A stretch of DNA of 64,000 bases from a virus. Made by a program: the position numbers and the translations under genes. The DNA lies in the IMG/VR virus record IMGVR_UViG_3300029197_000003; one strand, 5' to 3'. The notes below the pieces were generated by a model. The model saw only the letters and a program-made list of their open reading frames with translations, did not search any database and had not been told where the DNA came from. Shown piece by piece: positions 6,554 to 34,655 of the stretch (position 1 is the first letter of the stretch; the number at the start of each line of letters is the position of its first letter).

Positions 6554-6572
6554 ACAACAAGGTTTTAATTAG

Positions 6573-9506: not shown

Positions 9507-9543
9507 TAAAAACGTCAAAACAAAATGAAGTAATAATAGTATC

Positions 9544-11215: not shown

Positions 11216-11361
11216 TGAAAATTAGTAATAATTGTGGACCAGGAGGGACTATCCATTCTTACTTCTATTGGTATCTATAAGCCTATTTGTGTCTATAAAA
11301 CAGCGCTTTACGAATAATCCATATACATATATATGTAGATAGACGTATATAGATGTACGCA
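11216..11361. other. attP candidate: AT-rich region between two hairpins that share a 16-nt direct repeat
   Basis: AAAAGTGGCACACATT occurs at 11175-11190 and again at 11361-11376. Between them lie TATA/TAGAT-rich short repeats (CTATAA...CTATAAAA, ATGTAGATAGACGTATATAGATGTAC). The region lies directly 3' of int. Confidence 0.3.
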
Positions 11362-12730: not shown

Positions 12731-12766
12731 TAAAAAACGGGTGCATGGTAATTTTCATGCACCCGT
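12731..12766 (-). terminator. intrinsic terminator after the giant ORF
   Basis: On the minus strand: ACGGGTGCATG-AAAATTAC-CATGCACCCGT followed by TTTTTT. Confidence 0.75.
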
Positions 12767-12776
12767 CAATCTTACG

Positions 12777-15700
12777 TCACTCTTCAACCTTACTTAAGGT
12801 TTCCTTAATCTGAGGTGTGTACTCGCTTTGAATCCTGCCAATTTTCTCATCGGCCTCTTCCTGCGTCTTGGAATCCTCAACGGCGCGAGCACATTCTGTC
12901 ATTATTTTCTGCACTAACATCTGTGCATGGTCAAGTGCTGCGCGTTTATCCTTGTCATCGCCAATATAACTTCTTGCGTTGTCAAATTGGCTCTTGACTG
13001 AATTATAGCTTTTCCATAGCATATAACTCATGAAATCCTTGCTCTTAGCAAATTCGTCAAGCTCTTTCACGTATTGACTGTTACCTCTCGCGGATTCTTT
13101 CTGGTAATTATCAATCTTGTAAATCAACTTTTGCCCCTTGTCGTATTCTCGTTGGAATCGCTCTCGTGCTGCACGATTATGCGTGCGGTCGTCTACGGAT
13201 TTAACCAAGGTACGGTAGAATGGTATCTCGTTAGACCTTATCTGCTCTCCTTGGATAATCTTAGCGATAACGCCAGAGGTTCTGCTGACAAATTTACCTG
13301 CGCCCCCTGTGTATGATTCAACGAGATGCTGAACCATTGCAGGGTTGACCTGCACACCTGCACGTTCGTAGTCGCCGCCGCCCTGCACCTCGTTCAACCA
13401 TTTAGACATGGCAATATAATTAGGATTGGTGCTTTGGTAAACATTTCTGAATGCAGGTGTATTCTTGTTGAACGGTTCTTTATAGATTGGCATTCCGAGC
13501 CAATTCTTATTGAAGGCAATTTCTACTTCTGGTCGCACCGCTGTTGGAACGAGAGAAAGCATGCTGCCGTTGCCTTCGGTCAAGTCAAGAGGCAGTATCT
13601 GTGACAATTGCTCAAATGCTTGAAATGTAATCTCGCTCGCTGGTAGATTTTCGCTGCCGCAAACAACCGTCCCCAACAGTTCACCAATGCCGTATGCTGC
13701 GCGATGCTCAATTGACATCGGAAGAGTTAAAAATCTTCCGTCCTTACCCAACGGCAGCATAATGCCCATTCTTCTCATAGATTCAGGCATATCCCAGTAG
13801 TCATCTGGGTCTCCGCCTATGGCAGACAACATCAATGGAATGCACATGGCAGAAAGCATGCCGAGCGTTACTGCTGCGCCGTCCCACATAAGCATTCCTG
13901 CTGTATGGTTAAGATGTAATCTAACATTCTTGTCAAGACCTTGGATGCTGGCATTTGAAAATGCGTAGAAATTCTTGAATACCGATGCTGCATAAGCGCT
14001 GAGAAAATGAAGATTGTTCATGCTGAAAAAGTTGGAAACATCCCATTTCCCTGCTGATTTACTTCCAGCGCCCTTGCGGTTGAAGTTTATAGTTACTTCC
14101 TTTGCATCCATGATAGACTGTTCCATAGAACGCCCCATCTGTCTGCTGGTAAGGAATACAGCAAAGCGCACCCAGTCTTCCGTGCAGCGGCTCAGATATT
14201 CCGCCCCCTTCATGTAAATATTCCAAGCGTCATTAATAACATAATGATGGCCGTAAACAACCTTATTACTAAGGCGTTCAATCTTACTTTTTCCTTCCTT
14301 GGCGCGAAGTTCAGAAAGAGCTTTAGTGATTTCGCCCTTATAACGCTCAACGCCCTTCATAAAAGTATAGCCTGTCTCGCCGCCATTGTAGATAAAATCG
14401 TAAAACGCCTTTTCTAAAGGATTGGACATATCAAGAGTATTGCCATTAAGTCGGTTGACAAGTCGGCCGATATTCTTGACGCACGTAAGATAGTTCTTAA
14501 CGTATCTGCCGTAATATTCCGTCCCCTCCTTTGGTATCAGTGTCGTTGAAAATTCCAAATCTCGCATGGCGTTAGAGATAGCGAACTCAACGTTTCTTGC
14601 CGTAGCCATTCTTGCAATCCAATTGGTCATAGCCTTCAAAGCAATAGCTCCAGGGTTTTCCGTGGCATCTGGGTTTAGTAAGCCATTGATAGCTTGCGCC
14701 GCCCTCGGGTTCCCGTTGATGGTCAGTATGTAGGTCTTGCCTCCACGTTTCACCATAACTTGATGCTCATTCATGTTTCTGCCGAGCACTCGGTATGGAA
14801 TATGCGGTTTCTGATGAGCCAAGGCGTAGGTGTCAGGTTCATCCTTAACCTTTTCCTCCATGTCATCTTGGAAATCAAGCATCACTTGGTTTGCTTCCTC
14901 CGTTGTCATGCCGCTTGTATCTGGCACAGCCACTGGCACCCATGCTCCGCGCGTGCCGTCTCCGTTGTCGTAGTCTTCATCAAATTTCACGTAGAGGTCA
15001 CTGACGCTGATAAGGTCGGATGGGTGGTTTAAGGCGAGGTTCAGCAATTGCTGTTTCATGAGATTGCGGTTAGACTGCATGATGGCCATTTCTGCCATAT
15101 TGCCGATAACTGCAAACGGGTCATCTGCAACACTCTTACGTCCCTTGGCTTTCTTCATGAAGCTACCCGTGCCTCCATTGATTGTTTGGTCGCCAAAATA
15201 TTCGTACACCTCATCACTCGTTGCTTCGTCAAAACCTCTGAGTGGAATGTAGTACTGATACATACTGCTTACATTGTCGTATGTCTCCTTACTTATCAGT
15301 CCTGCCTCATACGCTCTTTGAAGGGAAGACTTTGTAGCAGCACGAATGCTGTCCCACATGCTATCCGTCAGACTGCCAGCCTCGGCCTCCACTTCCTCTA
15401 CATATTTTTGCGCTTCATCCATAGCCTCAGAAACGCTCTGCGTTCCGAATAACTCTGTCAATCCTGCAAAGCTCTTCTCTTCATATTCATCAATGAAGTA
15501 GTCAAGCGTCTTCTGCCCAAATGGGTGCATGGATTTATATCTGTCATAAGCCTCTTCTGCGGCCTTTCCTGCCATATATTTTTGACGCTCCATGCCGTGT
15601 TTGGCCATCACATACGTCTTTATTTCTTCGTATGAACGGCCTGTCTCGCTGCCAAGCGCATGAATGGCCTCTATCATATCTGCATAAAGCGTCCTCTTGT

Positions 15701-16000
15701 AAATATCCATCTGCGCATAATTGCGACTGCTCATAGTGATATAAGCGTTATATGGATTTTCAAAGTCTCCAAGCTTAAAGCCGCCGTTTTTCTCTATGGC
15801 GTGTTGTAAGTCCTGAAGAGGAGAAAGCATGTCAACCCACGCGGTACGTTCAAGGTGCGAACCTCTCGTCACAAGTCTTTCATAAGTATCCTTGGCAAGG
15901 ATTTCCTGCAAATTATCCAGTTCTCCGCGGAGCAAAACGGAGTGCTCCTTCTTCTCCGTGTCGGTCATCGCGTTCTTCCCAGCCTTCAATTTATAACGCA
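12777..16000 (-). other. giant ORF: C-terminal module of about 1,070 aa with a hydrophobic cluster
   Basis: It contains YYIPLRGFDE (about 15226-15262). I recall a PLxRFG-type motif in large phage proteins, but this is unverified. A TM-like cluster AGMLMWDGAAVTLGMLSAMCIPLMLSAIGG lies at about 13805-13915. Confidence 0.35.
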
Positions 16001-19000
16001 TGGCAATACGCTCCGCTTCGGCTACATAGCGTCCCTTTTCGCCTGTCTTCAAATTCTGATAGCTACACCAAAGTATATAAGCAAGTTCCCTATCGCTCAA
16101 CTCACGGTTTTTCAGGCCCAAGAACTCCAGCGCACGGTTAAACAGTCTTCGGAGGGTAGCAAACAAGCCGCGTTCTTCTGCCGTCATACGTTCAAAGTCC
16201 GTGCGCTCTGCAAGCCCTGCAAGATATTCTTCTGTGGCGGTACGGAAATTCCATCCTTTTCCGCGACGCAATTCGTTGATAGCGTCTTTCACTTCCTGCG
16301 AAGCTGCCGCAAGAACGCTGTCAAGAAAAGCATCCATCACGTTATGGCCAAATAACTCTCTCAGTCCGTGATGGGCTACGGCTTCATGCAGGATGGTCTG
16401 CGTCACGTCTGCTGCGTCAGTGTTGTTCGACAATACCACGTGGATTTGCCCCGTTCTGGTATCATACCAGCCTTTGGCCGTGGCCTCTCTTCCTTCAAGG
16501 CCTTCGGCGCTTTCATGCACGACAACTCTGCCGCCAAGGTTGAGGTTCTCGGTGGCTTTCTGCGCGGCTTGGGCTGCCTCAACCTTTATCTTGGTGATGG
16601 TTTCTTCAAGCCCAATGTCATCGTTGCGGAACATAATGCCGCCATCTGCAACATTTTTGGAAGAACTTTCGTTAATATCAAATAATGTCGGTATCTTTGC
16701 ATCCGAAGAAAGGAATTCACCAGAGTACGTTACGGACGTAGGGAGTAGGGAGTCTTTTATCTCCATAACTCGCTGGCTGATACCTTTCTTTTTTGATTTA
16801 AAGAAACTCTTTGCAGTAAGGTTTCCCTTTTTTGTACTGCACACCTCAGTCAGGTTATACAATCCGTTACCAGCATCTTTCAAGAAGAAGAACAATTTGC
16901 GTCCGTCTTTCTTGTCCACGCCATAGAGTATGCCGTCTGGCTGGTTCAACACGTCCACCATATTCTGAATATCTTCATCTGTAAGTGGCACATTGTTACC
17001 TTTGTCCTTTTCATTCTCGCCATAATGGTCTGAACGGATATGGTTCAAGTCAGATGGATTGAGAACAAAGTCCACAAACTCTTTAAACTTCAAATCCGAC
17101 AATTTCTCCAAGTATGCCTTCCCGTCTGCACTCAACCGACCGATGCTTGCTGGTTTCCCGACAAACTCTCCTGTCTTTGCTTTTTGAAACAACTCGGTTA
17201 CTCGTTTTTTCATATCTGCTATAGTTGTAGCGACTTGGTGGTTTTCTTCGACCTTACCATCACTGAACTTAGTATCACCGAATCCTGTCTTCCTGCGCAT
17301 AACCACAGTATCAGCGGCATCGAATACGGTAGGCTTACCACCATTCTTCTTACGCTTGTAGGCTTCATGTAGAATAAACGCCCAGTCCTTATCACTCCAC
17401 TTTCTCTTGCCTGGGATTTTTAATCCGTCCAGCAATTTTTGTAGAGCCTTTTGAAGTATGGTGGTTAGCTTGCCCCAGAACGTAAGTTCCTCGGCGCTCA
17501 TCGTCTCAAAGCCGCTTTCACCGATGCGTCCAGCAAGGTCGGCAGCATACTCCTCTGTGGCATCACGCCTGAACTGCTCACTCTTCTTACTTGCCTCAGA
17601 ACGAGCCTTTTCAATGTCAGTATGATATAAAGTGTTAGTATCCTCGCCCTTCGCCTCATGCTCCTTGCGCTTTCTCTCGCGCAATCGGTCCACCTCAGCA
17701 TCGTACATCTTCTGTGCCATGCGGTCAATCGTGCCGCGTATCTCGTCCTTAGACACACGATAAAGTTCATCAAGAGCATTGTTCAGCTTCGCTTCATCGG
17801 GGAACAACACACGTAAACCATCATGTCCCACAACCTCATGCACAAACGTATTTTCAATATCTGCCATGTTAGCGTTGTTTGATACTACAATAGTCACCTC
17901 GCCAGTTATAGGATTGAAGCTGCCTTTCATTCTGCGCTGACGTACACTTGGAAGTGCTGCCACTTCTGCCTCTGTGCGGATTATGCGCACAGGAGTATGC
18001 AGACGTTCAGACAACTCGGTCACTCTCTCGCTCATGGCGCTTTCCATTACTTCCTTGGGTTCTCCGACCCACTTGCCAGCCGTCTTCGCATTGATGCGTG
18101 CAATATCCTCGTTGCTGATGAATGGCAGTTGGCCCTCACGTCCAGGGATAACATCACGACCCTCCCAATTCTGCTTGTCGAGTGCAAGACTTTCTACTGG
18201 TGTCAGTTCCTTACCATCCAACTCGAAGCGATAACCCATCTTTTCCAACTCCCTGCGAACCTGCGGTACAAAGCGGTTGTAGTCTCGGTGGCTCTTCAGA
18301 GCCTCACGCTTGCCAGGATGCTTCTTCCAATACTCGTCAATCATCTTCGCCTCTTCTTCGCGTGTGAGCACCTTGTCTATTTTGCTCCAACGTGAAAGAT
18401 ACAGCGTGCGGCCGTTGTTCCACTGATGTGCGCCAGTAGGCAACAGGGCATAATCAGCATGGAATGGCTCGTCTATCTCCGATTTTGGAATGAGGCTGCG
18501 AACCACAACAAGGTTCGGTCTCTTATTTGCCTCGCCAAACTGCGTGTTCAAAGGTGTTTCAATGGCATGGTCATAGGGGTCGTATGCAGCCCACAAACCC
18601 TTGTCTTTGGGGTTCTTCTTCAGGAAGTACTGCAACTGTGCCTCCTTGGTCTTCGGCTTTACGAATTTCAAGCCATCGTTAATCTGCAACTCTGTGCTCT
18701 TCTTGCCGTCAACCATGATGTAGCCATTTTTGTTGAGTTCGTCTAACTTTCGCTGCTGCTCATCGGTCAGTTTTATCTGCGGTGGATTGCTGTAGTTCCA
18801 CTTTCCACCCTCCAATGTCCTGCGCTCCCCTGTCTCAGCATCGCTGAATGCCATAGGCGAACCGAGTGTATCATCCTCAAAGGCCTGCACATTGCGATAC
18901 ACTGGCACAAGTTCACTGTCTGGCAGTGCCTCCAGCTCCATTGCCTTCGGGTCGTCAGCATCCAACAAACGGAACTTGGTCTTGTCTTCTTCCGATTGAC

Positions 19001-25000: not shown

Positions 25001-28000
25001 CAACAGCATCAGTCCATGTGCGGCCACCATCGGTTGAATACTGCACCTTGTCACCTGCTGCAAACTTACCATCTGAAACCTCAGTACGCTCAGGTAGATA
25101 CTTGTAGACTTCACGCTTCACCTTATCCAACAGTTCTGAATACGTCACGTCTTTGTTAACCCATACATTTATGCCATAGCGTCTGTCATAGCGGCCATTG
25201 CCATTAGGATTATCCACGCGAAACATGATACGAGTCACTTTGAGGTTGTCACCTTCAAATTTGGCAACACCTCTACCTGCTGATGGTACGAGTTGAATAT
25301 TCACATACAGCTCACGCCCCTCTTCCAATGGCAAGTGCATACTAACATCACCTCCTAAAGGAGCAATGTTTGCCACAGCAAGCGGTTTCGTCTTGCGTTT
25401 ACCTTTCTTGTCGGCCTCTCCGTGTGTAGCCTCGAAGCGGTCAAGTCCAAGGTCGTCAATCAACTGACTTGCAAGGTTTGCCGCATCCTTCACGGCCTTC
25501 TTCTCTGCATTACGCATGTAGCCGTATGCCTCGTTGTAGTCCTTCTCCACCTGCTCAGCCTCATAGTAGCCAAGCAGGGCAAGCTGCTCATTTACCTTGT
25601 CGAGGGTTTCGTCTACTCTTTCGGATGCTCCTCCAAGTTCTTGTCTATCGCTTGAAGTTTCTGCGAGATTTTCAACTTCGCTTGCAACAGACGTTGCTTT
25701 GCTTCCAATAGCATCTGTATTTGCTGCTGTCTGTTTTTCGGTTTCTTTTCGTTGCTCATTTCTTGTTGCTTTTAATTCATTGTTTGCTTTTTCTGCTGCC
25801 ACTTGTGCCTTGCCTTCCTCAACTATCATATTGGCTTGGGCAAACACATCTTTATGAGGCTTATCGAAGTTCTCCACATCAAAGGCATCAACTTCCTCTG
25901 TAGGAGTAAACATCGCTTGGTCATAACCAGGAATGCGTTTTGCACCCTCATAAAACGATTTCAGCCACGGCTTGATTTTATAGCCGAGACGGCTGACCAT
26001 TGCCTTTGCAAATTCGGGGAATTTCACAAAGCCTTGGTCAATATACCCCAATGAGTAGTTCACACCTGCATTGTACACAAAACGTCTCTGTTGAGAGGTC
26101 ATCGCATCGGGGTCACGGAACTTTATACCTCCGTCCAACTCTTCATCGCCAATACCAAGCAATTCACGAAGAATGTCCTCATCATGTTTCATTTCATCAG
26201 TAATGACAAGTTTCTTCTCACCATTCAGCTTTGGTTGCTCAGCTTTAGTCGGCTCTGATGGCTTCTGCTCTGCCACATCTGCGACCTCTACACGGTTTGC
26301 AGGCTTCTTGGCTGCGGTCTTCTTGCTTGCCGTTGGCTTCTTCGGCTCCACTGCATCGCGAAGCTCCTGCGCTGTCATTGGCTGATTATCTGCAACGGCT
26401 TCCTCATTACCAACCATTTCTGCGGCCTTGCGTGCGTCCTCTTCACTACGGAACATCCAACCACCGCTCTCACGGTCTTTCCAACCGCGTGCTGGGGCAA
26501 AGCGTCCCTCGCCTATACGCTCCTTAGCAAACTCCTTGACAGCACGCTCTTGGTCGGCTGTCAAGTTATGGTCAAACGTGAGCAGTGAAACATCACTCGT
26601 CTTACCTTTCTTGTTGGTATAGGTAGATGGAGTGATGGTGTACCCCTTGCTCTCGCTTGTTTTGGTCTGCTTTGTTTCAGCCTTTGTAGGTGTCGCTTCT
26701 TCCTTAGCAGGAGCATTGCCTATTGTCTCTTTCTTCACCCCAGCATACTCCGCAAAAGGTTTGGTCTTTCTCTTGCTCGACTCTATCCACTTTTCAAAGT
26801 CTTCGAGGTTCACTGCCGTCACGTCAATTCTGCGCCCATTCTCCCAACCCTTTTCATAGTTGGAAAGATAGGCGTTCCGTGCCTCTTCCATACTGTTGAA
26901 GCCAAGCATCACCTTGTGTTCGTCAAACGTGCCGTCTGGGTTGTACTGGTCAACCACAAACACATATTTGCCGTCCCACTTATCCATATCTTCTGCAAGG
27001 AACACGTCTATATGGTCGCCGTCCACGCCCTCCGTGCCACGGATATAGCCGTAGGTATTGTTCATCTTCACGCTCCACTTCTTGCCATTGGCATCCGTAC
27101 CGCTACGCTCGCTTCCCTTTGGGTTTTCGATGGTAACGTCAAACGCGCCAACCTTCACGTGGCCCATTTTGTAGTTACCTGCCTTCTTCTGGGCTTCGGT
27201 GGGAGAGGTCTCTACTTCGGCCGACGCGGATTTTACAGCGGATTGGGTGGAATTTTTCGGTCTGTTTTCTTGGGTGGATGGGGAGGATTCTGTAACTTTG
27301 TCGGTAGATAACTCCCTTTCAGCAGGATATTGGTCGGAATTGGGCCGACCCAGAAGTGCCTCTTGTTCGGGAGTTATTTCTTTGCTCTTATATATGATTT
27401 CCTCATTTTCAGAAAGATTTGCATTACTCCTACGACCAAACAGAGTAGTTATAGCGTTTACTTCTATGTCTCGTCCAGCGTTTTTCACATCAGCGCCGAC
27501 AACAACATAATCCCCTTTTTCTGTTTTAAGTGCAGTATATATACGGAATCCCTTCTCTTTATTTTTAAGCTGCGTTATAGCAAACGGATGCTCAATTGCA
27601 TGAGGAATTTGCTCCCATTCAGACTTTGTAAAATCATGCGAACCATCCTTTCCGAAATGACGCGCAATCACACCATACCTGATAGTGAATTTTGAGCCAG
27701 TCATTCCAAGATGCTTCATAAAATCGGGGGCCTTCGCGAAGTCAAAAAAATTTCTATTGAAAATCTTTGAAGCATAATCCTTTCCTTTTTTGTAGATTGT
27801 ATTAAGGACATTTTCTATTGTGGAGTTTAATTCGGATTCTGCTTCTTCGCTGGCACGCTTCGCTTCTTCTTCAGCCTTTCGTTTCGCCTCCGCTTCAGCT
27901 TTCTCTTTAGCTATCCGTTCCTCCACCACCTTTGCTCTCTGCTGGGCAGGAACTTCTGCTATAGCCTTCCACTTGTCAAGTTCTTCCTGCGCTTTGGCAA

Positions 28001-31000
28001 TAGCCTGTGTGCGTACTTTAGCGGCCTTTACCTTTTCTGCAACAGAAACGCCAGAAGGCAATTTTATCTTTTTGGCTTTCTCCAATGCCTTCTCCTTGTC
28101 TTCCACCATAGACTTAGCAATCTCTTCTGCTTCTATCACGTTTCCCGCTTCCTCAGTCAGACCAGTAAAAGCAGTTTCGGCATCTGTCTGCTCATAGATA
28201 GGATTTCCGTTTTCGTCCTTTGGAATGCGCTCCAAGGCCGTAGGCTTATGCTCCTGCTCTGCTTGGGCAATAGCAGGTTTTCCTGCGTCTTCCTGCCCTG
28301 CCTGCGTAGGTGTAGCATCCACCTGTGGCGCGACTTCCGTGTCGCCCACCGCCTCTGTTTCATTCCAAAGCACATTGCCGTTTGCATCAGCAATCTCAGA
28401 AACACCGCTATCGAAGTCCGCAAGAGGGATGCGGTCTACCATTTTCCCATTATATGGCGCGTCAAACTCAATCTCCACGCCGTCTGCTGACAGATTGGTG
28501 ACACGTCCACTGACGGCATTTCCGCTGCCGTCTTTCATCTTGACATGGTAATCGTATTTGACTTCTGGCTTCGTTGGCTTCTCAGTAGCATCCGTAGCTG
28601 ACTGAGGTGTGACACCCTCTGCCGCTCCCTGTGCGTCTTCTTCCGATACGCCCTCTTGCTCCTTGTTGGCCAAGTTGTACTCCTCATTCATCGGCCCTTC
28701 TGCCGCATGGTATTCTTCGTCTGTCTCATCCAAATACGGCTCAATAGCCTCAAACTTACGTCCGCGGCCGCGTTGCTCTCGGAATACATCAATAGGGATA
28801 AGATAGTCATTGTTGTTTTGGTCAACGACTAAGACGCTTGCAGGATTCCCTTGTTCGTCATTGAAAACACATTTAATACCAACTTGCCGTCTATGTCCCT
28901 CTTCGTCCATCAGAATACCGCCTTGACCTGCCAGCGGAGTGTCCATGTTTAGATTGATAAGTCTCTGCTGTTCCTTATTTTCAGCATCAATCTTATCGTA
29001 CTTCCGTTGACGCTCGGTCATAGCATCGGATTCTTCAACAATACCTTCCACTTCGGATGCAGGAATCATTTCAATAACACCATTACCTTCACTGACAACA
29101 ACCGTTTCACCTGTAATGCTTCCGTTTTCGTATCTTCCACGAATAAGGAACACTGGCTTCTCCCTTCCTTTCACGTTCACCAGAATAACCTTTCCAGAGC
29201 CTCCTTCGCTGTCTGCTTCGTTCTCGAAGGTTATCTGTCTGATTACGCTGTCTGCGTGCTGTCTGCGTATGCTTTCGTCAGAGGTGATGCCATCCATCGC
29301 GCCCTTCTGCTGCTCACGGGCATTCAGGTAGGCCGACAGTGCAGCGTTTGCGGCCTTCTCGTCAAGCCCATTTTCCTTTGCAACTTCCACACCTTTTTTC
29401 AACTGCTCGGCAGGGGTCTCGCCAAGCGTATCGAGGTATGCGTCTATATCATCAGTAACGCCAAGTGCTGACATAGCCATTTCTCGCGTGTCAGCAAATG
29501 CCTGCTGAGCCTGCGCATATTCCTGCGGTGTCTGCATGTTGCGACCTTCTGCGTAAGCATGAATGGTCATGGCGTTCATTTCGTTCAACTCCTCGCCCGT
29601 GAGTGAGAAGGAATACTTTTCGCTAACAGCATTATTAAATACGGCTTGTGCCTTCTGTGCTCTCACGTAATTAAGGAACGCCTTCTTTTGTTCGTCTGAG
29701 AGAGATTTATTCTGGCATACGCCTGCATATATAGCGTTCACCAATGGCTCACCCTCCAGTCTGAGGATTGTGTTTTGAATCTTGTCCCAGTTCTCGTTGC
29801 CAAATAAACGTCTTGCGTTGGCTTCTGCTTTATCATAAGCGCTATTGACAGAGCGGAGCGTTCTGTAATATTTGACAGAACTTGCAGTGGAGGAGAAACC
29901 AAGCATAAAGATTGAGGAGGCCCAGACACTCAATGCCGTGTCAAGATTTTGTCTGCTATCAAAGATGTCTGCAAAGGTATAATTTTCATCGAAGGTAGCC
30001 GTCATCGGATTGGCGATATATTCTTCCAATACCTCATTTACAAATCCATCATAGCCACCTTTTTCAAATGTGCCATACACCTTTGACATAGCCTTGGCAA
30101 AAGCGCCGTTTTGTATCATGTGGATTGTTTTGTTATACGGCAAGGCTTCGCCAAAACTGCGGAGGCTAATCTTCCCGATGCCAAAAGCCTTGGCCACAGG
30201 CTCCAATACGTAAGTACCAACACGCTCTGAGACGTTTTGTACGAGCGTGTTTAATCCTGAGTGTAACAAGGAGTGCCCCCAGCTCTTTTCTTGCTGTGTG
30301 CCCGTTACGACAATACGTTGATTTTCATCAAACGTGTAATTCATCAAGCCCATCTTCTCAATTGCAGCATCAGAGATGATGCGCGGCATCTGAAATGAGC
30401 TATCAATCACACCAGCGGCATTGATAGCTGCCAGTCGCGTTGTTGCTCGGATGGTGGTATCAAAGAGCCAGTTCGTGCCGTATTTCGCGGCCATTCTGCT
30501 TCCACCCCTGATAATACCTCTTGCGGCAACATTTCCTGCGCCATAGGTCGCTATCGCACCAATGGTGAAGGGGAACGAATATCCAGCACCGAATGCTGGG
30601 CCATAAAGACGGCCTTCCCCGTGTCTATGAAATGCCGACATTGACTCTTGACTGAGCGAACGTGCAAGCCCTAAGCGGTCTTTGGCTTCCTGACCCATTT
30701 TCCCTTCGTGCGCTTTCACTGCAACAAGGTTTTCACGCAAATTATAAAGACCGAAAGTCCAGTTATCCAAATCGGAGATACCTTCAAGAAAACCACCCCA
30801 GGCTCCTACTTTATCTCCTGTGCGTAAGGCTTCTAACGCCTGTGTATATTTCTTAATGGATTCTTCTAATTTTCTTATATTTCCCCTTGCGAGCGCAACT
30901 TCATCGCTACGTTTTACGCCTTCTTCAGTAGAAGATTCTAAGAGGTCTTTGTAAAAGCTTGGATTAAACATTTCTGGAATATAAGACCCCTTGACTGCAT

Positions 31001-32615
31001 CATGGTCTCCAAATTGCTTAAGCCGCTCCTGCTCTTTCTTTAGCGCTTCTCTGGCCTGCGCAATCTGCTGTTGCAAATACGTCTCCTTGTATGGAAGTTT
31101 TTTGGAGATTTCGTTATCCAACTCCACCTTGGCTTTTGCTATGGCATCCTCTTCGCTTTCTCCATTCTTAACGACAACAGGCACTATTTGCAATCTGTCA
31201 TCAGGGTTTAACAACACCCCCTCTTCGTTGAATTTTCCTCCTAAACCTATTTTAATAAGTTCCTGCGCATCATCCCATCTGCGCTGCTCAATCATGTACG
31301 GAAAATAGATAATATGGCAGACTTCCCCGTTTTGAAGGAAGTTGCCGACCACTCTGTTTTTCTCGTAGGGGTCTGTATAATCCTTTCCTTCTTCGCCGAA
31401 GGTCATCTTTTCGTATTGCCGTCTGAATAGCTCGCGCTGCGCTTCTACTCCTCCCCTTAAAATGCTTGGGTCTGGCGCTTGAAGCGGTCTGATACGGCCG
31501 TCTTGAAATAATACAAAAATCGTCTTATTCGTGCCATTATTATAAATGTCGCTTGCCATTAAGGCTGTATAATTGGCATGGTACATTCCGTTCAACGACA
31601 CATCGTCGGGGTATGCACCATCGGAGCGTTTCAGTCTTCTCTTTTGGTCTTCCTGCTCTAATTCAGCGGTTATCTTGTTTAATTTATTCTTATCGTAATT
31701 TAATGCTTCATTCCATCTTAATTCAGAAATCCATGCAGGTCTCTCCTTGCCTAATGCTTGAAGATTCCTCGCTTGAAGATAGACCGCATTAGGAGACATG
31801 CTCGCTGTCTCCTGTGTATAAATACTACCAAGCCCTCTAAGAGCCTTCCACTTTTCATACCTCTCCTGAATATCGCCGCCAAGCGATGCAAAAGTGTATT
31901 CCTTTGCACCGCCGCATACTTGATTCTCAAAAGTAAGTGCCGCCTCAAATACTGAATCCAAGTCTGCATCCTTTGGCAATGAGCGTATAGGGATATATCG
32001 TGCTGTCTGATTCAAGCGTACATAAGAATCCTCTTTTGGCTTCTGATAAGCCTTCTTCTTTAGGTCTTTTGCTGCCTGATTTGCGAGTTCTTCAAGGGAT
32101 TTTGAGTAAGCGTTGTTCGATATTTCTTCTGCGGCCTGTAGATAATAGTCCGTTCCTGCATTCCTCATGCGACTTACATTCGGATTGAAATCTTGAAGAG
32201 TGTCGATAGGGCGTTGATTTTCACTGACTGCCTCAGCGCTCACCTCTGGCTTTTCTTCTTTCTTAGCTTCTGGCTTTTTTGTTGGCGTGACTTCCACGGG
32301 CTTCATATCCTTGGATATAGAATCCGCGCCCATAGGCGTTTGTTGTGTCTGCGGGTCTATGGCGTGAAGACCTATCTTTGAAGCAAAATCTTCGTAGGTA
32401 TCGCCAATATAATCTACACCTCCCTTCTTCATAAAGTCGTACACTTCTTTACGATATGTGTAACCCTTTATACCTGGGGCGTAAAAATCATTATAGAAAG
32501 TATCGTAGTCCTTGTCATAGGCATTATTTAACTTCAACGTATTATATAATGCCGTGGAATATTTATCACTGCTGATAGGTCTTTTATCTTCCGTATTCTC
32601 CATATTTATCATCAC
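12777..32615 (-). CDS. giant polyvalent multi-domain protein, 6,612 aa, probably virion cargo or an ejection protein
   Basis: One frame is open for 19,839 nt. The start region GTGATG overlaps the stop of the upstream gene, so the likely ATG is at 32612. The catalytic motifs I could read are listed as sub-features below. Confidence 0.85.
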   Translation of the reverse strand: MMINMENTEDKRPISSDKYSTALYNTLKLNNAYDKDYDTFYNDFYAPGIKGYTYRKEVYDFMKKGGVDYIGDTYEDFASKIGLHAIDPQTQQTPMGADSISKDMKPVEVTPTKKPEAKKEEKPEVSAEAVSENQRPIDTLQDFNPNVSRMRNAGTDYYLQAAEEISNNAYSKSLEELANQAAKDLKKKAYQKPKEDSYVRLNQTARYIPIRSLPKDADLDSVFEAALTFENQVCGGAKEYTFASLGGDIQERYEKWKALRGLGSIYTQETASMSPNAVYLQARNLQALGKERPAWISELRWNEALNYDKNKLNKITAELEQEDQKRRLKRSDGAYPDDVSLNGMYHANYTALMASDIYNNGTNKTIFVLFQDGRIRPLQAPDPSILRGGVEAQRELFRRQYEKMTFGEEGKDYTDPYEKNRVVGNFLQNGEVCHIIYFPYMIEQRRWDDAQELIKIGLGGKFNEEGVLLNPDDRLQIVPVVVKNGESEEDAIAKAKVELDNEISKKLPYKETYLQQQIAQAREALKKEQERLKQFGDHDAVKGSYIPEMFNPSFYKDLLESSTEEGVKRSDEVALARGNIRKLEESIKKYTQALEALRTGDKVGAWGGFLEGISDLDNWTFGLYNLRENLVAVKAHEGKMGQEAKDRLGLARSLSQESMSAFHRHGEGRLYGPAFGAGYSFPFTIGAIATYGAGNVAARGIIRGGSRMAAKYGTNWLFDTTIRATTRLAAINAAGVIDSSFQMPRIISDAAIEKMGLMNYTFDENQRIVVTGTQQEKSWGHSLLHSGLNTLVQNVSERVGTYVLEPVAKAFGIGKISLRSFGEALPYNKTIHMIQNGAFAKAMSKVYGTFEKGGYDGFVNEVLEEYIANPMTATFDENYTFADIFDSRQNLDTALSVWASSIFMLGFSSTASSVKYYRTLRSVNSAYDKAEANARRLFGNENWDKIQNTILRLEGEPLVNAIYAGVCQNKSLSDEQKKAFLNYVRAQKAQAVFNNAVSEKYSFSLTGEELNEMNAMTIHAYAEGRNMQTPQEYAQAQQAFADTREMAMSALGVTDDIDAYLDTLGETPAEQLKKGVEVAKENGLDEKAANAALSAYLNAREQQKGAMDGITSDESIRRQHADSVIRQITFENEADSEGGSGKVILVNVKGREKPVFLIRGRYENGSITGETVVVSEGNGVIEMIPASEVEGIVEESDAMTERQRKYDKIDAENKEQQRLINLNMDTPLAGQGGILMDEEGHRRQVGIKCVFNDEQGNPASVLVVDQNNNDYLIPIDVFREQRGRGRKFEAIEPYLDETDEEYHAAEGPMNEEYNLANKEQEGVSEEDAQGAAEGVTPQSATDATEKPTKPEVKYDYHVKMKDGSGNAVSGRVTNLSADGVEIEFDAPYNGKMVDRIPLADFDSGVSEIADANGNVLWNETEAVGDTEVAPQVDATPTQAGQEDAGKPAIAQAEQEHKPTALERIPKDENGNPIYEQTDAETAFTGLTEEAGNVIEAEEIAKSMVEDKEKALEKAKKIKLPSGVSVAEKVKAAKVRTQAIAKAQEELDKWKAIAEVPAQQRAKVVEERIAKEKAEAEAKRKAEEEAKRASEEAESELNSTIENVLNTIYKKGKDYASKIFNRNFFDFAKAPDFMKHLGMTGSKFTIRYGVIARHFGKDGSHDFTKSEWEQIPHAIEHPFAITQLKNKEKGFRIYTALKTEKGDYVVVGADVKNAGRDIEVNAITTLFGRRSNANLSENEEIIYKSKEITPEQEALLGRPNSDQYPAERELSTDKVTESSPSTQENRPKNSTQSAVKSASAEVETSPTEAQKKAGNYKMGHVKVGAFDVTIENPKGSERSGTDANGKKWSVKMNNTYGYIRGTEGVDGDHIDVFLAEDMDKWDGKYVFVVDQYNPDGTFDEHKVMLGFNSMEEARNAYLSNYEKGWENGRRIDVTAVNLEDFEKWIESSKRKTKPFAEYAGVKKETIGNAPAKEEATPTKAETKQTKTSESKGYTITPSTYTNKKGKTSDVSLLTFDHNLTADQERAVKEFAKERIGEGRFAPARGWKDRESGGWMFRSEEDARKAAEMVGNEEAVADNQPMTAQELRDAVEPKKPTASKKTAAKKPANRVEVADVAEQKPSEPTKAEQPKLNGEKKLVITDEMKHDEDILRELLGIGDEELDGGIKFRDPDAMTSQQRRFVYNAGVNYSLGYIDQGFVKFPEFAKAMVSRLGYKIKPWLKSFYEGAKRIPGYDQAMFTPTEEVDAFDVENFDKPHKDVFAQANMIVEEGKAQVAAEKANNELKATRNEQRKETEKQTAANTDAIGSKATSVASEVENLAETSSDRQELGGASERVDETLDKVNEQLALLGYYEAEQVEKDYNEAYGYMRNAEKKAVKDAANLASQLIDDLGLDRFEATHGEADKKGKRKTKPLAVANIAPLGGDVSMHLPLEEGRELYVNIQLVPSAGRGVAKFEGDNLKVTRIMFRVDNPNGNGRYDRRYGINVWVNKDVTYSELLDKVKREVYKYLPERTEVSDGKFAAGDKVQYSTDGGRTWTDAVVAHPNDEGGYLIDTGLAPVLWVNAHPDQLRHKPESNTISDTELIKRITEHPLFKELVDNNPDAQAARTLLGERIMTDVRLSLRKDGYVETYKKLLNDKGFSEKIADKAFAKRHIVSKNDEGGYFYEDGINEDAVAALPEGIHINDDVTRRSENGGVQHTASEKPVGKPKSAAQKTTKKVKPEQPVGDLFAGPLDKPNNNGTADSNSSSPSQTVAGGERPNTVGIDETGTDGGKRTTAVTGTDGERSTDASRENGREAADGAVHGTDEVGGIQPPVGNRGRDESAANRTVSNGATDERGRVAGPRTVQTGETDGGGKELSSGEPASSTGEGSRPSAVKKQRTPVRKFTNNFHYGTDGNEADNYTPAQRLEGNVSAIEVIAKLFKEGRKATDEEKQILSRFRGWGQIDQLSKFYSVDQMRRNTYGNSPYHRLADAIDTLDPDGKKGVFAGIKRAALSSYYTPTKIASAMNSFLSLAGFKGGTFLDPSMGNGIFEGTLPKDIQGRTMITGVELDWLSGQISRALYPDADVRICGFEKSGLTPNSQDVVTSNVPFGDIEVNDPTWKNDNSPIKRSAQKRIHNYYAVKMLELTRPGGIVAMMTSPAVMDTQSNQHIRRYIAEQGEFLGAVRLPDNTFQGTGAMADIIYIRKWKDEEDAQKTRENPDYVAREQAFLSSAETTAPNKRNGEKQKVSHNAYYASNRKNMIGDVVAGNQYNDKSFGLHSELTTDQIAKEVEKAVKRIVGDRKGMLFDTTRTSREVKQAVREEYKGDGNWVSTGNLVIQDGKVGVLTATKNEYGEVTRVFEEQPQLAKQKMRIIAMGEVRTAMKELIAGQIDGLSDTKLNMLRAKLKRAYGEFVSKYGKLQDTDNAVILSDIDGYTLQALEVWKGGKFQGLSDIFTKNTIKPALKLEDAKTPQEAITTSLAEYGEIRGEYIEKTLGADWFEQCGDLVFKEPNATDRYVTRDEYLSGDVVAKLEEAKTAAATDPTFERNVKELEQVQPATIPFDDITIHLGARWIPQEVLNDFVKETLGLHASSSRNYEWVDGERREIIKSGVVYVPETDSFEINIEEKELGGQADDWKTADKSIKEIFQVALEDKDFRIVRKDKDGNTWIDQEATELANSKVADLREHFEQWLPGNDARIQIMERAYNDRFNRIVLRKWDGSHLNVPGLMGKELRPHQKDAVWMLINNRGGIVDHIVGAGKTLVMQSAIMEMRRMGIAKKPMIVALKSTVPQIAREFKEAYPTARVLAPSEKDFSTENRKKFFANISLNDYDCIIVSHEQYCKIPHSEEAEGDVVNEQLAQLDAMIEYLYGTGDKSQLTKRQIKSLEKRRQNLHAKLEKRLDRSTDREFCFENMGIDYLFVDECHQFKSLPYVTSYQNVAGLGEASGSNKAVALLTGIRHLQKMHQGDKGTVFLSGTTITNSLVEIYNLLNYLRPRKLEQLGMPTFDAWASTFAVHSSELEAGVSNEFKMKDRFRYFDNVPELSQLYAEIADVRNDYNLQLPKPKVDGKTVIVPQSDAVAEINREVVKMLRTKDGSYFGIHPINPKKFPWGLVASGISAKAAVSPRLVFPDMDDSVGKISYCCDNIKKSYDEMKEQKGVQLVFCELGVPTKGNKYDAYHDIINRLTKDYGIPRDEIAYIQQVKNDTEKEALFQKVRDGKVRILIGGTRNMGTGVNVQTRITDLHMLTVPWQPADLEQCIGRGSRQGNVVAHDFLNNKVRVHYYATEGSLDLYKYQLLDAKGKMFTQFKMGTISGERSFDEGDADENGNIDPAQMVALLSGNPIIFEKSKQDKLVKKLKSLYNGFLRDQQRKRQNYETVTKKVENLKRLISLSDSDVHDLQREGFKPDDKGTYPSKVKVTVEDSYYGQNFDKPKEAGQYILEQLKNNKKVVLAGFGQRADIVFVTDDDLLSSHYEVQIGGNNAWSIRYTKRMPQDPTQAGLVFRSLLEQIIHNNEVYHREYDTNSEMLKTMPKGDAPFSKQKELDEAIAKQKELDAEYNKLGQSEEDKTKFRLLDADDPKAMELEALPDSELVPVYRNVQAFEDDTLGSPMAFSDAETGERRTLEGGKWNYSNPPQIKLTDEQQRKLDELNKNGYIMVDGKKSTELQINDGLKFVKPKTKEAQLQYFLKKNPKDKGLWAAYDPYDHAIETPLNTQFGEANKRPNLVVVRSLIPKSEIDEPFHADYALLPTGAHQWNNGRTLYLSRWSKIDKVLTREEEAKMIDEYWKKHPGKREALKSHRDYNRFVPQVRRELEKMGYRFELDGKELTPVESLALDKQNWEGRDVIPGREGQLPFISNEDIARINAKTAGKWVGEPKEVMESAMSERVTELSERLHTPVRIIRTEAEVAALPSVRQRRMKGSFNPITGEVTIVVSNNANMADIENTFVHEVVGHDGLRVLFPDEAKLNNALDELYRVSKDEIRGTIDRMAQKMYDAEVDRLRERKRKEHEAKGEDTNTLYHTDIEKARSEASKKSEQFRRDATEEYAADLAGRIGESGFETMSAEELTFWGKLTTILQKALQKLLDGLKIPGKRKWSDKDWAFILHEAYKRKKNGGKPTVFDAADTVVMRRKTGFGDTKFSDGKVEENHQVATTIADMKKRVTELFQKAKTGEFVGKPASIGRLSADGKAYLEKLSDLKFKEFVDFVLNPSDLNHIRSDHYGENEKDKGNNVPLTDEDIQNMVDVLNQPDGILYGVDKKDGRKLFFFLKDAGNGLYNLTEVCSTKKGNLTAKSFFKSKKKGISQRVMEIKDSLLPTSVTYSGEFLSSDAKIPTLFDINESSSKNVADGGIMFRNDDIGLEETITKIKVEAAQAAQKATENLNLGGRVVVHESAEGLEGREATAKGWYDTRTGQIHVVLSNNTDAADVTQTILHEAVAHHGLRELFGHNVMDAFLDSVLAAASQEVKDAINELRRGKGWNFRTATEEYLAGLAERTDFERMTAEERGLFATLRRLFNRALEFLGLKNRELSDRELAYILWCSYQNLKTGEKGRYVAEAERIAMRYKLKAGKNAMTDTEKKEHSVLLRGELDNLQEILAKDTYERLVTRGSHLERTAWVDMLSPLQDLQHAIEKNGGFKLGDFENPYNAYITMSSRNYAQMDIYKRTLYADMIEAIHALGSETGRSYEEIKTYVMAKHGMERQKYMAGKAAEEAYDRYKSMHPFGQKTLDYFIDEYEEKSFAGLTELFGTQSVSEAMDEAQKYVEEVEAEAGSLTDSMWDSIRAATKSSLQRAYEAGLISKETYDNVSSMYQYYIPLRGFDEATSDEVYEYFGDQTINGGTGSFMKKAKGRKSVADDPFAVIGNMAEMAIMQSNRNLMKQQLLNLALNHPSDLISVSDLYVKFDEDYDNGDGTRGAWVPVAVPDTSGMTTEEANQVMLDFQDDMEEKVKDEPDTYALAHQKPHIPYRVLGRNMNEHQVMVKRGGKTYILTINGNPRAAQAINGLLNPDATENPGAIALKAMTNWIARMATARNVEFAISNAMRDLEFSTTLIPKEGTEYYGRYVKNYLTCVKNIGRLVNRLNGNTLDMSNPLEKAFYDFIYNGGETGYTFMKGVERYKGEITKALSELRAKEGKSKIERLSNKVVYGHHYVINDAWNIYMKGAEYLSRCTEDWVRFAVFLTSRQMGRSMEQSIMDAKEVTINFNRKGAGSKSAGKWDVSNFFSMNNLHFLSAYAASVFKNFYAFSNASIQGLDKNVRLHLNHTAGMLMWDGAAVTLGMLSAMCIPLMLSAIGGDPDDYWDMPESMRRMGIMLPLGKDGRFLTLPMSIEHRAAYGIGELLGTVVCGSENLPASEITFQAFEQLSQILPLDLTEGNGSMLSLVPTAVRPEVEIAFNKNWLGMPIYKEPFNKNTPAFRNVYQSTNPNYIAMSKWLNEVQGGGDYERAGVQVNPAMVQHLVESYTGGAGKFVSRTSGVIAKIIQGEQIRSNEIPFYRTLVKSVDDRTHNRAARERFQREYDKGQKLIYKIDNYQKESARGNSQYVKELDEFAKSKDFMSYMLWKSYNSVKSQFDNARSYIGDDKDKRAALDHAQMLVQKIMTECARAVEDSKTQEEADEKIGRIQSEYTPQIKETLSKVEE
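16020..16480 (-). other. giant ORF: zincin-like HExxH module 2, paralog of module 1
   Basis: The sequence is IHVVLSNNTDAADVTQTILHEAVAHHGLRELF, with HEAVAH within 16368-16394. The same downstream pattern (TEEY.A.LA.R...F..M.AEE..F...L) occurs in module 1. Confidence 0.55.
16770..17160 (-). other. giant ORF: nuclease-like module 2, PBECR-like, tentative
   Basis: The sequence is IGRLSADGKAYLEKL...NPSDLNHIRSDHYGENEKDKGN...LFFFLKDAGNGLYNLTEVCSTKKGNLTAKSFFKS. Confidence 0.3.
17345..17925 (-). other. giant ORF: zincin-like HExxH module 1
   Basis: The sequence is TIVVSNNANMADIENTFVHEVVGHDGLRVLF, with HEVVGH at 17823-17840. Confidence 0.55.
19850..21480 (-). other. giant ORF: SF2 (SNF2/DEAD-like) helicase module
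   Basis: Motif I is VGAGKTLV (about 21392-21412). Motif II is DECH (20907-20918). Motif VI is QCIGRGSRQGN (about 19880-19915). Confidence 0.8.
23190..23975 (-). other. giant ORF: N6-adenine DNA methyltransferase module
   Basis: Motif I is GGTFLDPSMGNGIF (about 23528-23570). Motif IV is SNVPFGD (23343-23360). Confidence 0.75.
26780..27185 (-). other. giant ORF: family-I inorganic-pyrophosphatase-like module
   Basis: TIENPKGSERSG...NNTYGYIRGTEGVDGDHIDVFL (27001-27060) parallels E. coli PPase [21 protein letters not shown]. Confidence 0.55.
27420..27780 (-). other. giant ORF: nuclease-like module 1, PBECR/barnase-EndoU-like, tentative
   Basis: The sequence is KIFNRNFFDFAKAPDFMKHLG...IARHFGKDGSHDFTKSEWEQIPHAIEHPF...YVVVGADVKNAGRDIEVNAITTLFGRR. 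It has conserved His residues followed by short beta strands. I assigned it by resemblance only. Confidence 0.3.
30520..30605 (-). other. giant ORF: Gly-zipper/hydrophobic segment near the N-terminal quarter
   Basis: The segment is GPAFGAGYSFPFTIGAIATYGAGNVAARG. Confidence 0.4.
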
Positions 32616-34027: not shown

Positions 34028-34572
34028 ACTTTTGCGTCGGTTTTCTGTTTCAAATCCTTTTTAGCATCTGCCATCTCGTCAAAAGCAAGCCCCGCCGTTG
34101 CTGCGGCTTGTCCGACACCTTGGATGGCGGCTGCGGTATTAGCTTGTTGTTGCTGAGACATCTGTATCCGTCTGTTGGCGAAGTTCTGCGTGTTGGCGAG
34201 ATGCTGATGTTCGATTGCGTCACGTTGCGCCATGCCTTGTGCGTTGATATTGCTCGCGGTCTGAGCGATGGCATTGTTGTTTTGTTCGCGTGCAGCCGCT
34301 GCTGCCGCCGCCGTGCCGCCCATCACGGCACTCTGCCCTGCCGCCGCCTGATTACGTTTGCGGATGCTGTCTTGCGTCATCGTGATAAGGCGCTGTGCAG
34401 AGGCACGCTGTGTATTGTCAGTATTGTACTCCCTGTCATACCAAGCCTTCTCTGCCGCTTCCTGCTCTTTGAGGAGACGGCGTTGTTTACGGGCTTCACG
34501 AGCATTCTTGATGCCGCCGAAGATGGCGCTTGCTGCGCCGACACCTGCTGAAATAGCTGTTCCTATTGCCAT
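34024..34572 (-). CDS. A/Q/N-rich small virion-type protein
   Basis: The start is taken at MAIGTAISAGVGAASAIFGG (ATG at 34572). It has an N-terminal Gly/Ala hydrophobic segment followed by a Q/A/N-rich helix. Confidence 0.4.
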   Translation of the reverse strand: MAIGTAISAGVGAASAIFGGIKNAREARKQRRLLKEQEAAEKAWYDREYNTDNTQRASAQRLITMTQDSIRKRNQAAAGQSAVMGGTAAAAAAAREQNNNAIAQTASNINAQGMAQRDAIEHQHLANTQNFANRRIQMSQQQQANTAAAIQGVGQAAATAGLAFDEMADAKKDLKQKTDAKV

Positions 34573-34655
34573 AGTAGTCTGTTTTATAAAGATATATATA
34601 TGAGGCAAATATAATCATGTATCTTTGCTATCGGTTTATAACTTTATAAAGCGAA

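Follow-up and report, generated by a model that had tools for sequence, protein, structure and literature searches.

We show here that a 64,000-nucleotide viral sequence (IMG/VR record IMGVR_UViG_3300029197_000003; hereafter the window, meaning this whole stretch of DNA) carries a giant minus-strand open reading frame (ORF) whose product is nearly certainly a polyvalent, DarB-like protein. Comparisons with related loci and proteins indicate that this gene is a mosaic with breakpoints at domain boundaries, and that its family combines conserved ends with a variable middle; we did not find either pattern stated in the literature searched. On our overall account, which we consider probable, it is a DarB-like protein of the phage type of polyvalent proteins that is packaged into the virion, ejected, and active early in the next host. 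An earlier interpretation of the window, made from its letters without database searches (the sequence-only reading), had proposed a polyvalent protein of the kind described by Iyer, Burroughs, Anand, de Souza and Aravind (2017), and the Pfam domain set and LPD domains bear this out. It had also held that no described protein has a similar size and domain combination, which proved wrong: gp55 of Bacteroides phage BKO1-TP3 is collinear over all major blocks, and homologues fall into 6,399 clusters with members of up to 6,927 amino acids (aa). The window protein adds a new member to a very large family that has already been described, and its size is ordinary for that family.

The giant gene is real and under purifying selection

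An open frame of 19.8 kb at 46-50% GC is beyond chance. The sequence-only reading had described a minus-strand frame of 6,612 codons that covers 31% of the window, is chained to its upstream genes by overlaps and ends at a GC-rich hairpin terminator, and each of these elements is present. The ATG at 32612, the second codon of the frame, is the likelier start, because it forms a TGATG overlap with the stop codon of the upstream 471-aa ORF (32612-32614); the product then has 6,611 aa, a mass of 741.5 kDa and an isoelectric point of 5.6. The 471-aa ORF in turn overlaps the 194-aa ORF before it by 4 nt (34024-34027). The terminator hairpin has a predicted folding energy of -25.7 kcal/mol (z = -7.2), equalled by none of 200 shuffled sequences, and was not picked up by a consensus terminator scan.

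Substitutions relative to homologous genes are concentrated at third codon positions in all blocks of the gene (for example 7, 4 and 47, or 58, 29 and 362, at positions 1, 2 and 3), which shows that the ORF is translated. The frame is unbroken in all 17 IMG/VR contigs that share a common mid-gene segment at 97-99% identity. In two contigs that share the window's own backbone (at 95-97% nucleotide identity), the gene order is the same and the giant frame is a single ORF, of 6,290 and 6,258 aa respectively; 16 stitched IMG/VR contigs hold complete ORFs of 5,448-6,780 aa, nine of which are longer than the window protein, and isolate genomes contain open frames of at least 5,511, at least 5,903 and at least 5,398 aa, each reaching the end of the fetched flank. 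The giant ORF is thereby shown to be real and under purifying selection. A megablast search of phage and plasmid collections with the whole giant gene gave no match. In one close relative (Logan contig ERR7339384_35816, with a C-terminal block 96-98% identical to that of the window), the frame is broken into two ORFs that overlap by 28 nt (L004:3340-3367), through either a frameshift or pseudogene or a sequencing error.

Domain anatomy of the giant protein

We ran Pfam on ten overlapping tiles of the giant protein, in which MuF_C, InPase, N6_Mtase, ResIII/SNF2/Helicase_C and PBECR3 exceeded the curated cut-offs (Table 1). Such a tiled profile search had been recommended in the sequence-only reading, and it yielded significant support for the modules listed there; all of the catalytic motifs were located in the order given, with their modules backed by Pfam. 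In PHROGs, aa ~1380-4540 match phrog_10089, "DarB-like antirestriction" (3.5e-194 on the helicase tile), and aa 5350-6600 match phrog_14770. NCBIfam added nothing for the giant protein beyond sub-threshold generic methylase and helicase matches, and approximately half of the protein (aa 1-800, 912-1650, 1946-2890, 4250-4860 and 5535-6240) has no family assignment.

Table 1 Features of the window and of the giant protein it encodes.
Feature	Position (nt)	Strand	Protein position (aa)	Basis and remarks
CI-like HTH-S24 repressor	8265-9035			
Tyrosine integrase	9945-11165			
Intrinsic terminator	12731..12767	minus		directly 3' of the giant-gene stop; 12-bp G+C-rich hairpin and U-tract
Giant ORF	12777..32615	minus	1-6612	6,612 codons from GTG 32615; 31% of genome
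N block	27696..30938	minus	560-1640	contains LPD14, aa 800-912
MuF_C, PBECR-type predicted RNase	27381..27650	minus	1656-1745	Pfam PF18819, E 2e-10
InPase, polyvalent-type inorganic pyrophosphatase	26781..27197	minus	1807-1945	Pfam PF18823, E 1e-55, full-length match
Linker, low-complexity, G/T/S/A/P-rich	23946..24518	minus	~2700-2890	composition; left cassette breakpoint nt 24418
LPD36-like region and N6-adenine methyltransferase	22866..23948	minus	~2890-3250	Pfam, phrog_10089, phrog_11801, motifs
SF2/SNF2-type helicase	19866..21518	minus	~3700-4250	Pfam, tblastn to P1 darB
HEXXXH domain 1	17256..18035	minus	4861-5120	HEVVGH aa 4926, TEEY aa 5020; right cassette breakpoint nt 18029
PBECR3, predicted RNase	16782..17105	minus	5171-5278	Pfam PF18812, E 2e-13
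HEXXXH domain 2	16014..16598	minus	5340-5534	HEAVAH aa 5410, TEEY aa 5461
C block	12780..16013	minus	5535-6612	helical region, TM-like segment, LPD38, helical tail; phrog_14770
TM-like (transmembrane-like) segment	13818-13895	minus	6241-6266	hydropathy; sole strongly hydrophobic segment
LPD38	13218-13805	minus	6271-6466	Pfam E 4.5e-33
471-aa gene	32612..34027	minus		coupled to the giant gene via TGATG; related to BKO1-TP3 gp56 (43% over 74 aa, E 2e-16)
194-aa ORF	34024..34608	minus		opens the three-gene unit; a product of 182 aa from ATG 34572 is likelier
Divergent 92-aa ORF	34656..34934	plus		between portal and three-gene unit; sequence starts MATAVRKCGRKKGTPNK
P22-like portal	35012..37129	minus		Pfam P22_portal 3.5e-42; phrog_156 1.8e-87
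GH108 endolysin	38149-38682			
SU10-like capsid protein	47195-48796			
TerL	50470-52590			

The central part of the protein is the methylase-helicase pair of the P1 DarB type, as the sequence-only reading had recognized from motifs and as phrog_10089 and a tblastn match to P1 darB (E = 2e-22) now support. The N6_Mtase match covers aa 3077-3190 (E = 4e-10), and the TP cap (YYTPT, aa 2995), motif I (DPSMGNG, aa 3021) and motif IV (NVPF, aa 3086) of the methylase are intact. These features agree with those described for the methylase-helicase dyad (PMC5512222); the GxGU motif of LPD36 is imperfect (GWGQ). The helicase is matched by ResIII (1.4e-9), SNF2-rel (6.8e-9) and Helicase_C (2e-6) over aa ~3710-4244, with motifs I (GAGKT, aa 3736), II (DECH, aa 3900), III (SGTT, aa 3953) and VI (GRGSRQGN, aa 4238) all intact. 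Further upstream, the InPase domain bears the motif YGYIRGTEGVDGDHIDVF at aa 1855-1872. The N block is 21-25% identical over ~1,000 aa to BKO1-TP3 gp55, to gp3 of Bacteroides phage BS-TP4 and to isolate prophages. Its LPD14 is borderline in the window (27.4 bits in Pfam) and is matched by three of six aligned homologues, at best with E = 1e-13.

Downstream of the helicase lie two HEXXXH domains, paralogues with 29% identity, that are probably zincin-like metallopeptidases (MPTases) of the HEXXXH variant, a subset explicitly described among the MPTases of polyvalent proteins (PMC5512222). The motifs HEVVGH and HEAVAH named in the sequence-only reading are both present and are of the HEXXXH rather than the HExxH type. 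Residues H70, E71 and H75 and a downstream E122-E123-Y124 do not vary among 47 sequences or between the two window copies. In the structural model of domain 2 (predicted local distance difference test, pLDDT, 85.6), a helix, three strands, the HEXXXH helix and further helices follow one another in the order of the zincin core; the top match in the Protein Data Bank (PDB) was ArdC, the antirestriction protein that is the archetype of the polyvalent-protein metallopeptidase, at weak scores (E = 0.27, TM-score 0.25). A search of BFVD with the same model returned 12 matches at E ≤ 1e-3, all of them large phage or polyvalent proteins, together with weak matches to IrrE-like, crAss "zincin" and SprT-like proteins (E 0.04-0.5). 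A PDB sequence search with the HEXXXH-PBECR3-HEXXXH region (aa 4851-5560) found nothing.

The hydrophobic or Gly-zipper segments that the sequence-only reading had placed near both ends were recovered in part: aa 6241-6266 are TM-like, and the Gly-rich stretch at the N-terminal end (aa ~670-720) stays below threshold. A 1,200-residue model of the C-terminal region is of low confidence (pLDDT 62.6, predicted TM-score 0.40). Several near-identical relatives (98%; P0122, P0004/P0005) stop at ~aa 6088 of the window protein (nt ~14357), before the TM-like segment and LPD38, and one of these, P0122, is full-size at 5,566 aa; either LPD38 is dispensable or these prophages are defective.

Conserved ends and a variable middle

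We searched an exhaustive, 50%-representative library by HMMER with the C-terminal 1,053 aa, and 1,275 of the 6,399 clusters retrieved match at E ≤ 1e-30. The best 147 representatives have a median length of 4,547 aa, with 59 of at least 5,000 aa, 12 of at least 6,000 aa and a maximum of 6,927 aa. Since the only size-record claim in the literature searched is for a phage protein of 5,007 aa, the window protein lies beyond the published record and not beyond the databases. An initial search of a 90%-clustered database had returned only relatives of at most 2,186 aa, as if the gene were split elsewhere, a view overturned by the exhaustive library and the contig frames. Very long proteins are apparently under-represented or truncated in that 90%-clustered database, from which conclusions on length could mislead.

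Among the same 147 representatives, the HEXXXH domain was found in 126, the N block in 105 and InPase in 89, with far lower counts for the helicase (29), methylase (27), MuF_C (16) and PBECR3 (3). About 260 aa precede the N block, ~60 aa lie between the end of the HEXXXH domain and the C block, and the C block match stops a median of 37 residues (maximum 214) from the C-terminus. Together, these domain counts and end distances indicate that the ends of the protein are conserved and that its middle varies. The C block has homologues in 335 phage records, among them those of Stx phages, Lessievirus and Vibrio phages. Close relatives (49-72% identity in the InPase region) were also found in metagenome-assembled genomes labelled Staphylococcus sp. 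and Bacillota (L179, with a frame of 5,246 aa, and L204), most likely through binning contamination rather than a host jump.

A mosaic gene with breakpoints at domain boundaries

The mosaic structure emerged from a binned identity matrix of ~100 loci against the giant gene. One set of contigs (A-type) matches the window at 93-100% identity over aa 1-2800 and at 94-99% over aa 4800-6612, and carries in the same place its own methylase-helicase, too divergent for DNA alignment, within single ORFs of 6,258-6,548 aa. A second set (B-type) matches aa 1800-5400, with the methylase-helicase at 86-97%, and has N and C blocks unrelated to those of the window; among the contigs compared, aa 2800-4800 are matched only by this type. 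Other loci have the N block, InPase and C block in common with the window and a different, shorter middle. The breakpoints, at aa ~1790, ~1955, ~2732, ~4862 and ~5350, coincide with low-complexity linkers or with the edges of InPase and the two HEXXXH domains.

The same data raise the question of whether the ORF, or part of it, is an assembly chimera in which a B-type methylase-helicase cassette was placed on an A-type backbone. The window is A-type on both sides of a stretch with B-type matches only, the homologous flanks common to both lineages are possible switch points for an assembler, and none of the IMG/VR and metagenome contigs examined in two scans has the window's right-hand junction at >93%. 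Against this stand several observations. Because the A-type contigs have their own cassette within single ORFs, neither the architecture nor the giant size hinges on the junction. The population holds many cassette states with the same domain-boundary breakpoints, as natural recombination predicts, and the reading frame is preserved through both junctions. Moreover, the window cassette differs by 3-14% from every B-type sampled and so was not copied from a known co-assembled strain. An artefact of the whole ORF is excluded by the unbroken frames in relatives and by the third-position bias, and we consider a chimeric cassette very unlikely.

Phage genome and gene neighbourhood

The window is essentially a whole temperate phage genome, with an integrase, a repressor, an endolysin and head genes (Table 1). 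No tape measure, tube or sheath family was detected by Pfam and PHROG among the window ORFs scanned, in agreement with the sequence-only reading, and the phage is probably short-tailed. An ARAGORN scan of the window found no tRNA. A segment adjoining the integrase (11151-11247) matches both ~90-bp direct repeats around a decayed prophage in a bacterial contig (L003; repeats 9783-9877 and 15980-16062). The left repeat overlaps the 3' end of a transfer-messenger RNA (tmRNA) gene (9393-9796, tag GENNYALAA), so the phage attP targets ssrA. The decayed prophage retains a 2,059-aa truncated remnant of the giant protein, consisting of InPase, LPD3 and part of the C block.

The host is probably a member of the Bacteroidales, family Prevotellaceae. 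The Bacteroides phages BS-TP4, BKO1-TP3 and BF1-TP2 are the closest in culture (45-58% identity in the portal), Leyella stercorea and Prevotellamassilia timonensis have the closest isolate genomes, and the metagenome matches are all of human-gut origin.

Near attP, at the end of the genome, lies a three-gene unit that encodes proteins of 194 or 182 aa and 471 aa and, last, the giant protein; the product of the 471-aa gene has no Pfam or PHROG match. The sequence-only reading had the gene chain begin right after the portal gene, which is not the case: a 403-nt gap separates the two and holds a conserved 92-aa ORF on the opposite strand. This small ORF is 100% identical at the aa level in two A-type contigs and 44% identical (E = 4e-19) to BKO1-TP3 gp58, which occupies the corresponding divergent position there, and its basic N-terminus suggests a DNA-binding product. 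TAnnTTTG is the Bacteroidetes -7 consensus. Two back-to-back copies of this motif lie in the gap between the 92-aa ORF and the unit, where ~0.2 are expected by chance in the region searched; one, at 34613-34606, overlaps the TTG start of the 194-aa ORF and is a candidate promoter motif. A sigma-70 promoter scan, whose consensus does not include Bacteroidetes promoters, found none in the portal gap. The placement of the giant gene inside the virion-protein operon thus stands in so far as it lies among head genes, and requires amendment in that it belongs to a unit of its own, with a divergent small gene and candidate promoters.

Two further parts of the genome drew our attention. Within the structural module, between capsid and portal, two minus-strand genes (41959-42858 and 42923-44263) encode a glycosyltransferase of family 2 (Pfam 1.6e-29) and an acyltransferase-like protein with hexapeptide repeats; these could act on the virion or, in lysogenic conversion, on the surface of the host. 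A 951-aa ORF (55522-58377, minus strand) matches phrog_32516 end to end (E = 1.6e-178, function unknown) and, faintly, a "tail appendage" family. The ORF is a candidate for the tail fibre or spike of the phage, whose tail is apparently short.

Proposed packaging and delivery, and alternative roles

Indirect support for a place in the virion comes from JC1 gp69, a 4,515-aa protein of a Burkholderia phage (Lessievirus). It matches the window protein over the methylase-helicase (q2819-4366/s1404-2938, 27.6% identity over 1,638 aa, E = 6e-153) and again over the C block (q5595-6475/s3630-4409, E = 3e-33), amounting to collinear homology over ~2,800 aa, and 51 unique peptides of it were detected by mass spectrometry in CsCl-purified virions (PMC9144972). 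Furthermore, InPase and LPD38 are listed as domains that occur in the phage type of polyvalent protein only (Iyer, Burroughs, Anand, de Souza and Aravind 2017; PMC5512222). By this homology, the giant protein is quite probably packaged in virions. The capsid-packaged, ejected cargo of the sequence-only reading is therefore a reasonable inference in its first half, by way of JC1 gp69, and has no direct support for an ejection function.

We infer packaging, ejection, proteolytic processing, anti-restriction activity and a chassis role in the following scheme. The 742-kDa polypeptide would be made late, from its own three-gene unit, incorporated into the phage head and delivered with the DNA into the next host cell, where its modules would be active during the first few minutes after infection. 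Incoming DNA would be shielded from restriction by the LPD36-like/N6-adenine methylase/SF2 helicase dyad, as it is by P1 DarB; InPase would act on pyrophosphate or nucleotide-like signals, and the PBECR-type domains MuF_C and PBECR3 would act as RNases. The two zincin-like HEXXXH domains may cut the chain into working units, before or after delivery, as has been proposed for the MPTase domains of polyvalent proteins (PMC5512222). The conserved ends, namely the N block with LPD14 and the HEXXXH domain with the LPD38-containing C block and its TM-like segment, would be a "chassis" for encapsidation and exit, and the middle an exchangeable payload that may be swapped between co-circulating phages by recombination at domain boundaries. 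Taken further, and only tentatively, the family could be a modular protein-delivery platform in which a fixed chassis carries a cassette bay for DarB dyad alleles, InPase, RNases and others, which co-circulating gut phages would exchange through recombination in linkers and in the peptidase domains. By analogy, such a platform may be the phage counterpart of polymorphic toxin systems, with polypeptides of up to 6,900 aa passing through a short tail.

Several observations weigh against this account. Presence in virions has been shown for JC1 gp69, and not for the window phage or its Bacteroides relatives. The N-terminal thirds of the two proteins are unrelated (an hhalign comparison of the N-block profile with JC1 gp69 aa 1-1259 gave a probability of 0.08%), and the two genes upstream of the giant gene were rejected as homologues of JC1 gp67 and gp68 (BLASTP E = 3.1 and 0.55). 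BS-TP4 gp3 and most family members lack the methylase-helicase, so anti-restriction is not a common function of the family. The zincin fold of the HEXXXH domain has no significant match among solved structures, ArdC being the best, and a fold search with the low-confidence model of aa 5340-6540, which takes in most of the C block, gave no match (best E = 0.72); with no structural match and a single TM-like segment, a channel-forming or exit role of the C block is conjecture. The paper that describes BKO1-TP3 and BS-TP4 (PMC12694917) does not mention the giant gene. Finally, the gene adjoins attP at the prophage end and has its own candidate promoter and terminator, which is typical of lysogen-expressed accessory genes too.

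This last point bears on a different role, that of an intracellular or lysogen-expressed accessory ("moron") protein that defends the lysogen from other mobile elements or remodels the host from inside and is not virion cargo. Besides the attP-proximal position next to the integrase (9945-11165) and att-like repeat (11151-11247), the promoter motif and the strong terminator, such a role would suit the divergent gene that separates the portal from the three-gene unit, the proposal that hosts capture polyvalent proteins for defence (PMC5512222), and the decayed prophage at the tmRNA gene, in which only a truncated copy of the giant gene is retained between attL and attR, although that copy may be mere debris. 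We nonetheless consider it unlikely, given that JC1 gp69, a collinear homologue of the giant protein, is physically present in virions, that InPase and LPD38 are reported only in phage-type, capsid-associated polyvalent proteins (PMC5512222), and that the gene takes up 31% of the genome, is translationally coupled to its upstream genes and adjoins the portal in all relatives.

Alternatively, the protein could be primarily structural, an internal-core or ejectosome protein (like T7 gp14-16 and P22 gp7/16/20) that builds the DNA conduit through the cell envelope and carries its enzymes as passengers. No similarity of the giant protein to these known families was detected in Pfam, PHROG, NCBIfam, PDB or fold searches, a single TM-like helix is thin evidence for a channel, and the true ejection proteins could be among the unannotated window genes. 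These points make a primarily structural role distinctly unlikely, despite a P22-like portal without tape measure, tube or sheath, the absence of separate recognizable ejection-protein genes among the scanned ORFs, N and C blocks that are kept family-wide whatever the payload, the TM-like segment beside LPD38, and a C block common to short-tailed Stx phages and Lessieviruses. A structural role overlaps with delivery of a packaged DarB-like protein rather than excluding it.

Human-gut Bacteroidales phages devote up to a third of their genome to one protein, which is experimentally unstudied in this lineage. If packaging and ejection are true, no polypeptide known to pass through a phage tail would be larger, against a published record of 5,007 aa in the literature searched, and the swappable middles would form a catalogue of anti-defence effectors against gut commensals, with a bearing on host range and on microbiome phage engineering. 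Cultured material is available for testing the predictions, in BKO1-TP3, BS-TP4 and prophages of Leyella stercorea MSK.21.24 and Prevotellamassilia timonensis. For genome annotation, such giant genes are real and are not to be split or flagged as artefacts.

Comparison with known systems

The closest cultured relatives are BKO1-TP3 and BS-TP4, both temperate phages of Bacteroidales, whose portals are 58% identical. BKO1-TP3 gp55 (XPO94969.1, GenBank PQ571269), annotated "DarB-like antirestriction", has 5,553 aa and is ~1,000 aa shorter than the window protein, with which it is collinear over the N block (24% identity), InPase (45%), methylase-helicase (28%), HEXXXH domain (29%) and C block (37%). 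BS-TP4 gp3 (XPO95421.1; 5,391 aa, "hypothetical protein") has no methylase-helicase. The four-gene arrangement is the same in BKO1-TP3, with gp58 divergent from gp57-gp56-gp55, but there the unit lies upstream of the portal, whereas the window's lies downstream. Both phages also carry a reverse transcriptase and a 2,600-aa target gene of a diversity-generating retroelement; no ORF of this length occurs in the window. The giant gene goes unmentioned in two large prophage surveys.

JC1 gp69 and Bcep22 gp75 are giant DarB-like proteins that end the morphogenesis module of podoviruses, and the window helicase region also matches the DarB-like proteins of Bcep22 and JC1 in tblastn. The genes upstream of JC1 gp69 (196 and 510 aa) resemble those of the window (194 and 471 aa) in size and order only, and BLAST found no InPase, MuF_C, PBECR3 or HEXXXH region in JC1 gp69. 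The host phylum differs as well, and the virion location is proven for JC1 gp69 and probable for the window protein. Because its N-terminal third has no homology to JC1 gp69, we do not file the window protein in the Lessievirus-type subfamily.

The DarB protein of phage P1 is ~2,255 aa long and consists essentially of the dyad alone. In tblastn with the window methylase-helicase (1,660 aa), three pieces that cover 39% of the query match P1 darB with 27% identity. P1 DarB is carried in the virion and shields DNA from type I restriction, its packaging depends on Hdf, DarA and DdrA (PMC9144972), and it is the archetype of the methylase-helicase dyad (PMC5512222). P1 is a myovirus, whereas the window phage is apparently short-tailed. 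The names Hdf, DarA and DdrA were absent from the general Pfam and PHROG matches of the scanned ORFs, no dedicated search having been run.

Two very large proteins of short-tailed phages offer further comparisons. The N4 virion RNA polymerase, gp50, is packaged in the podovirus head and ejected, and its encapsidation depends on the C-terminal region that contains an MPTase (PMC5512222). In that region the MPTase precedes one further domain, a layout that resembles the HEXXXH domain and C block of the window protein; this likeness is architectural only, and the window protein lacks an RNA polymerase module. In 2021, the title of "the longest known phage protein" went to gp27 of Erwinia phage Pavtok, with 5,007 aa. 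This phage is short-tailed, its gp27 is a putative ejection protein partly homologous to one of P1, and very large ejection proteins are described as traversing the conduit at least partly unfolded (PMC8402733). Compared by length only, the window protein is ~1,600 aa longer than Pavtok gp27, and uncultured relatives reach 6,780 and 6,927 aa.

Lastly, the window protein belongs to the phage-type polyvalent proteins by its domain set, its LPD and InPase domains and its head-gene neighbourhood. With this class it shares the many conflict-related domains per polypeptide, among them LPD14, LPD38, InPase, MuF_C and PBECR3, the LPD36-methylase-SF2 helicase dyad, HEXXXH MPTases between modules, and the portal-terminase neighbourhood. 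Its 6,611 aa lie far above the typical ">2,000 aa" of the class (PMC5512222). And whereas polyvalent proteins are described as having no fixed organisational theme (PMC5512222), the subfamily of the window protein has conserved N and C blocks around a variable middle.

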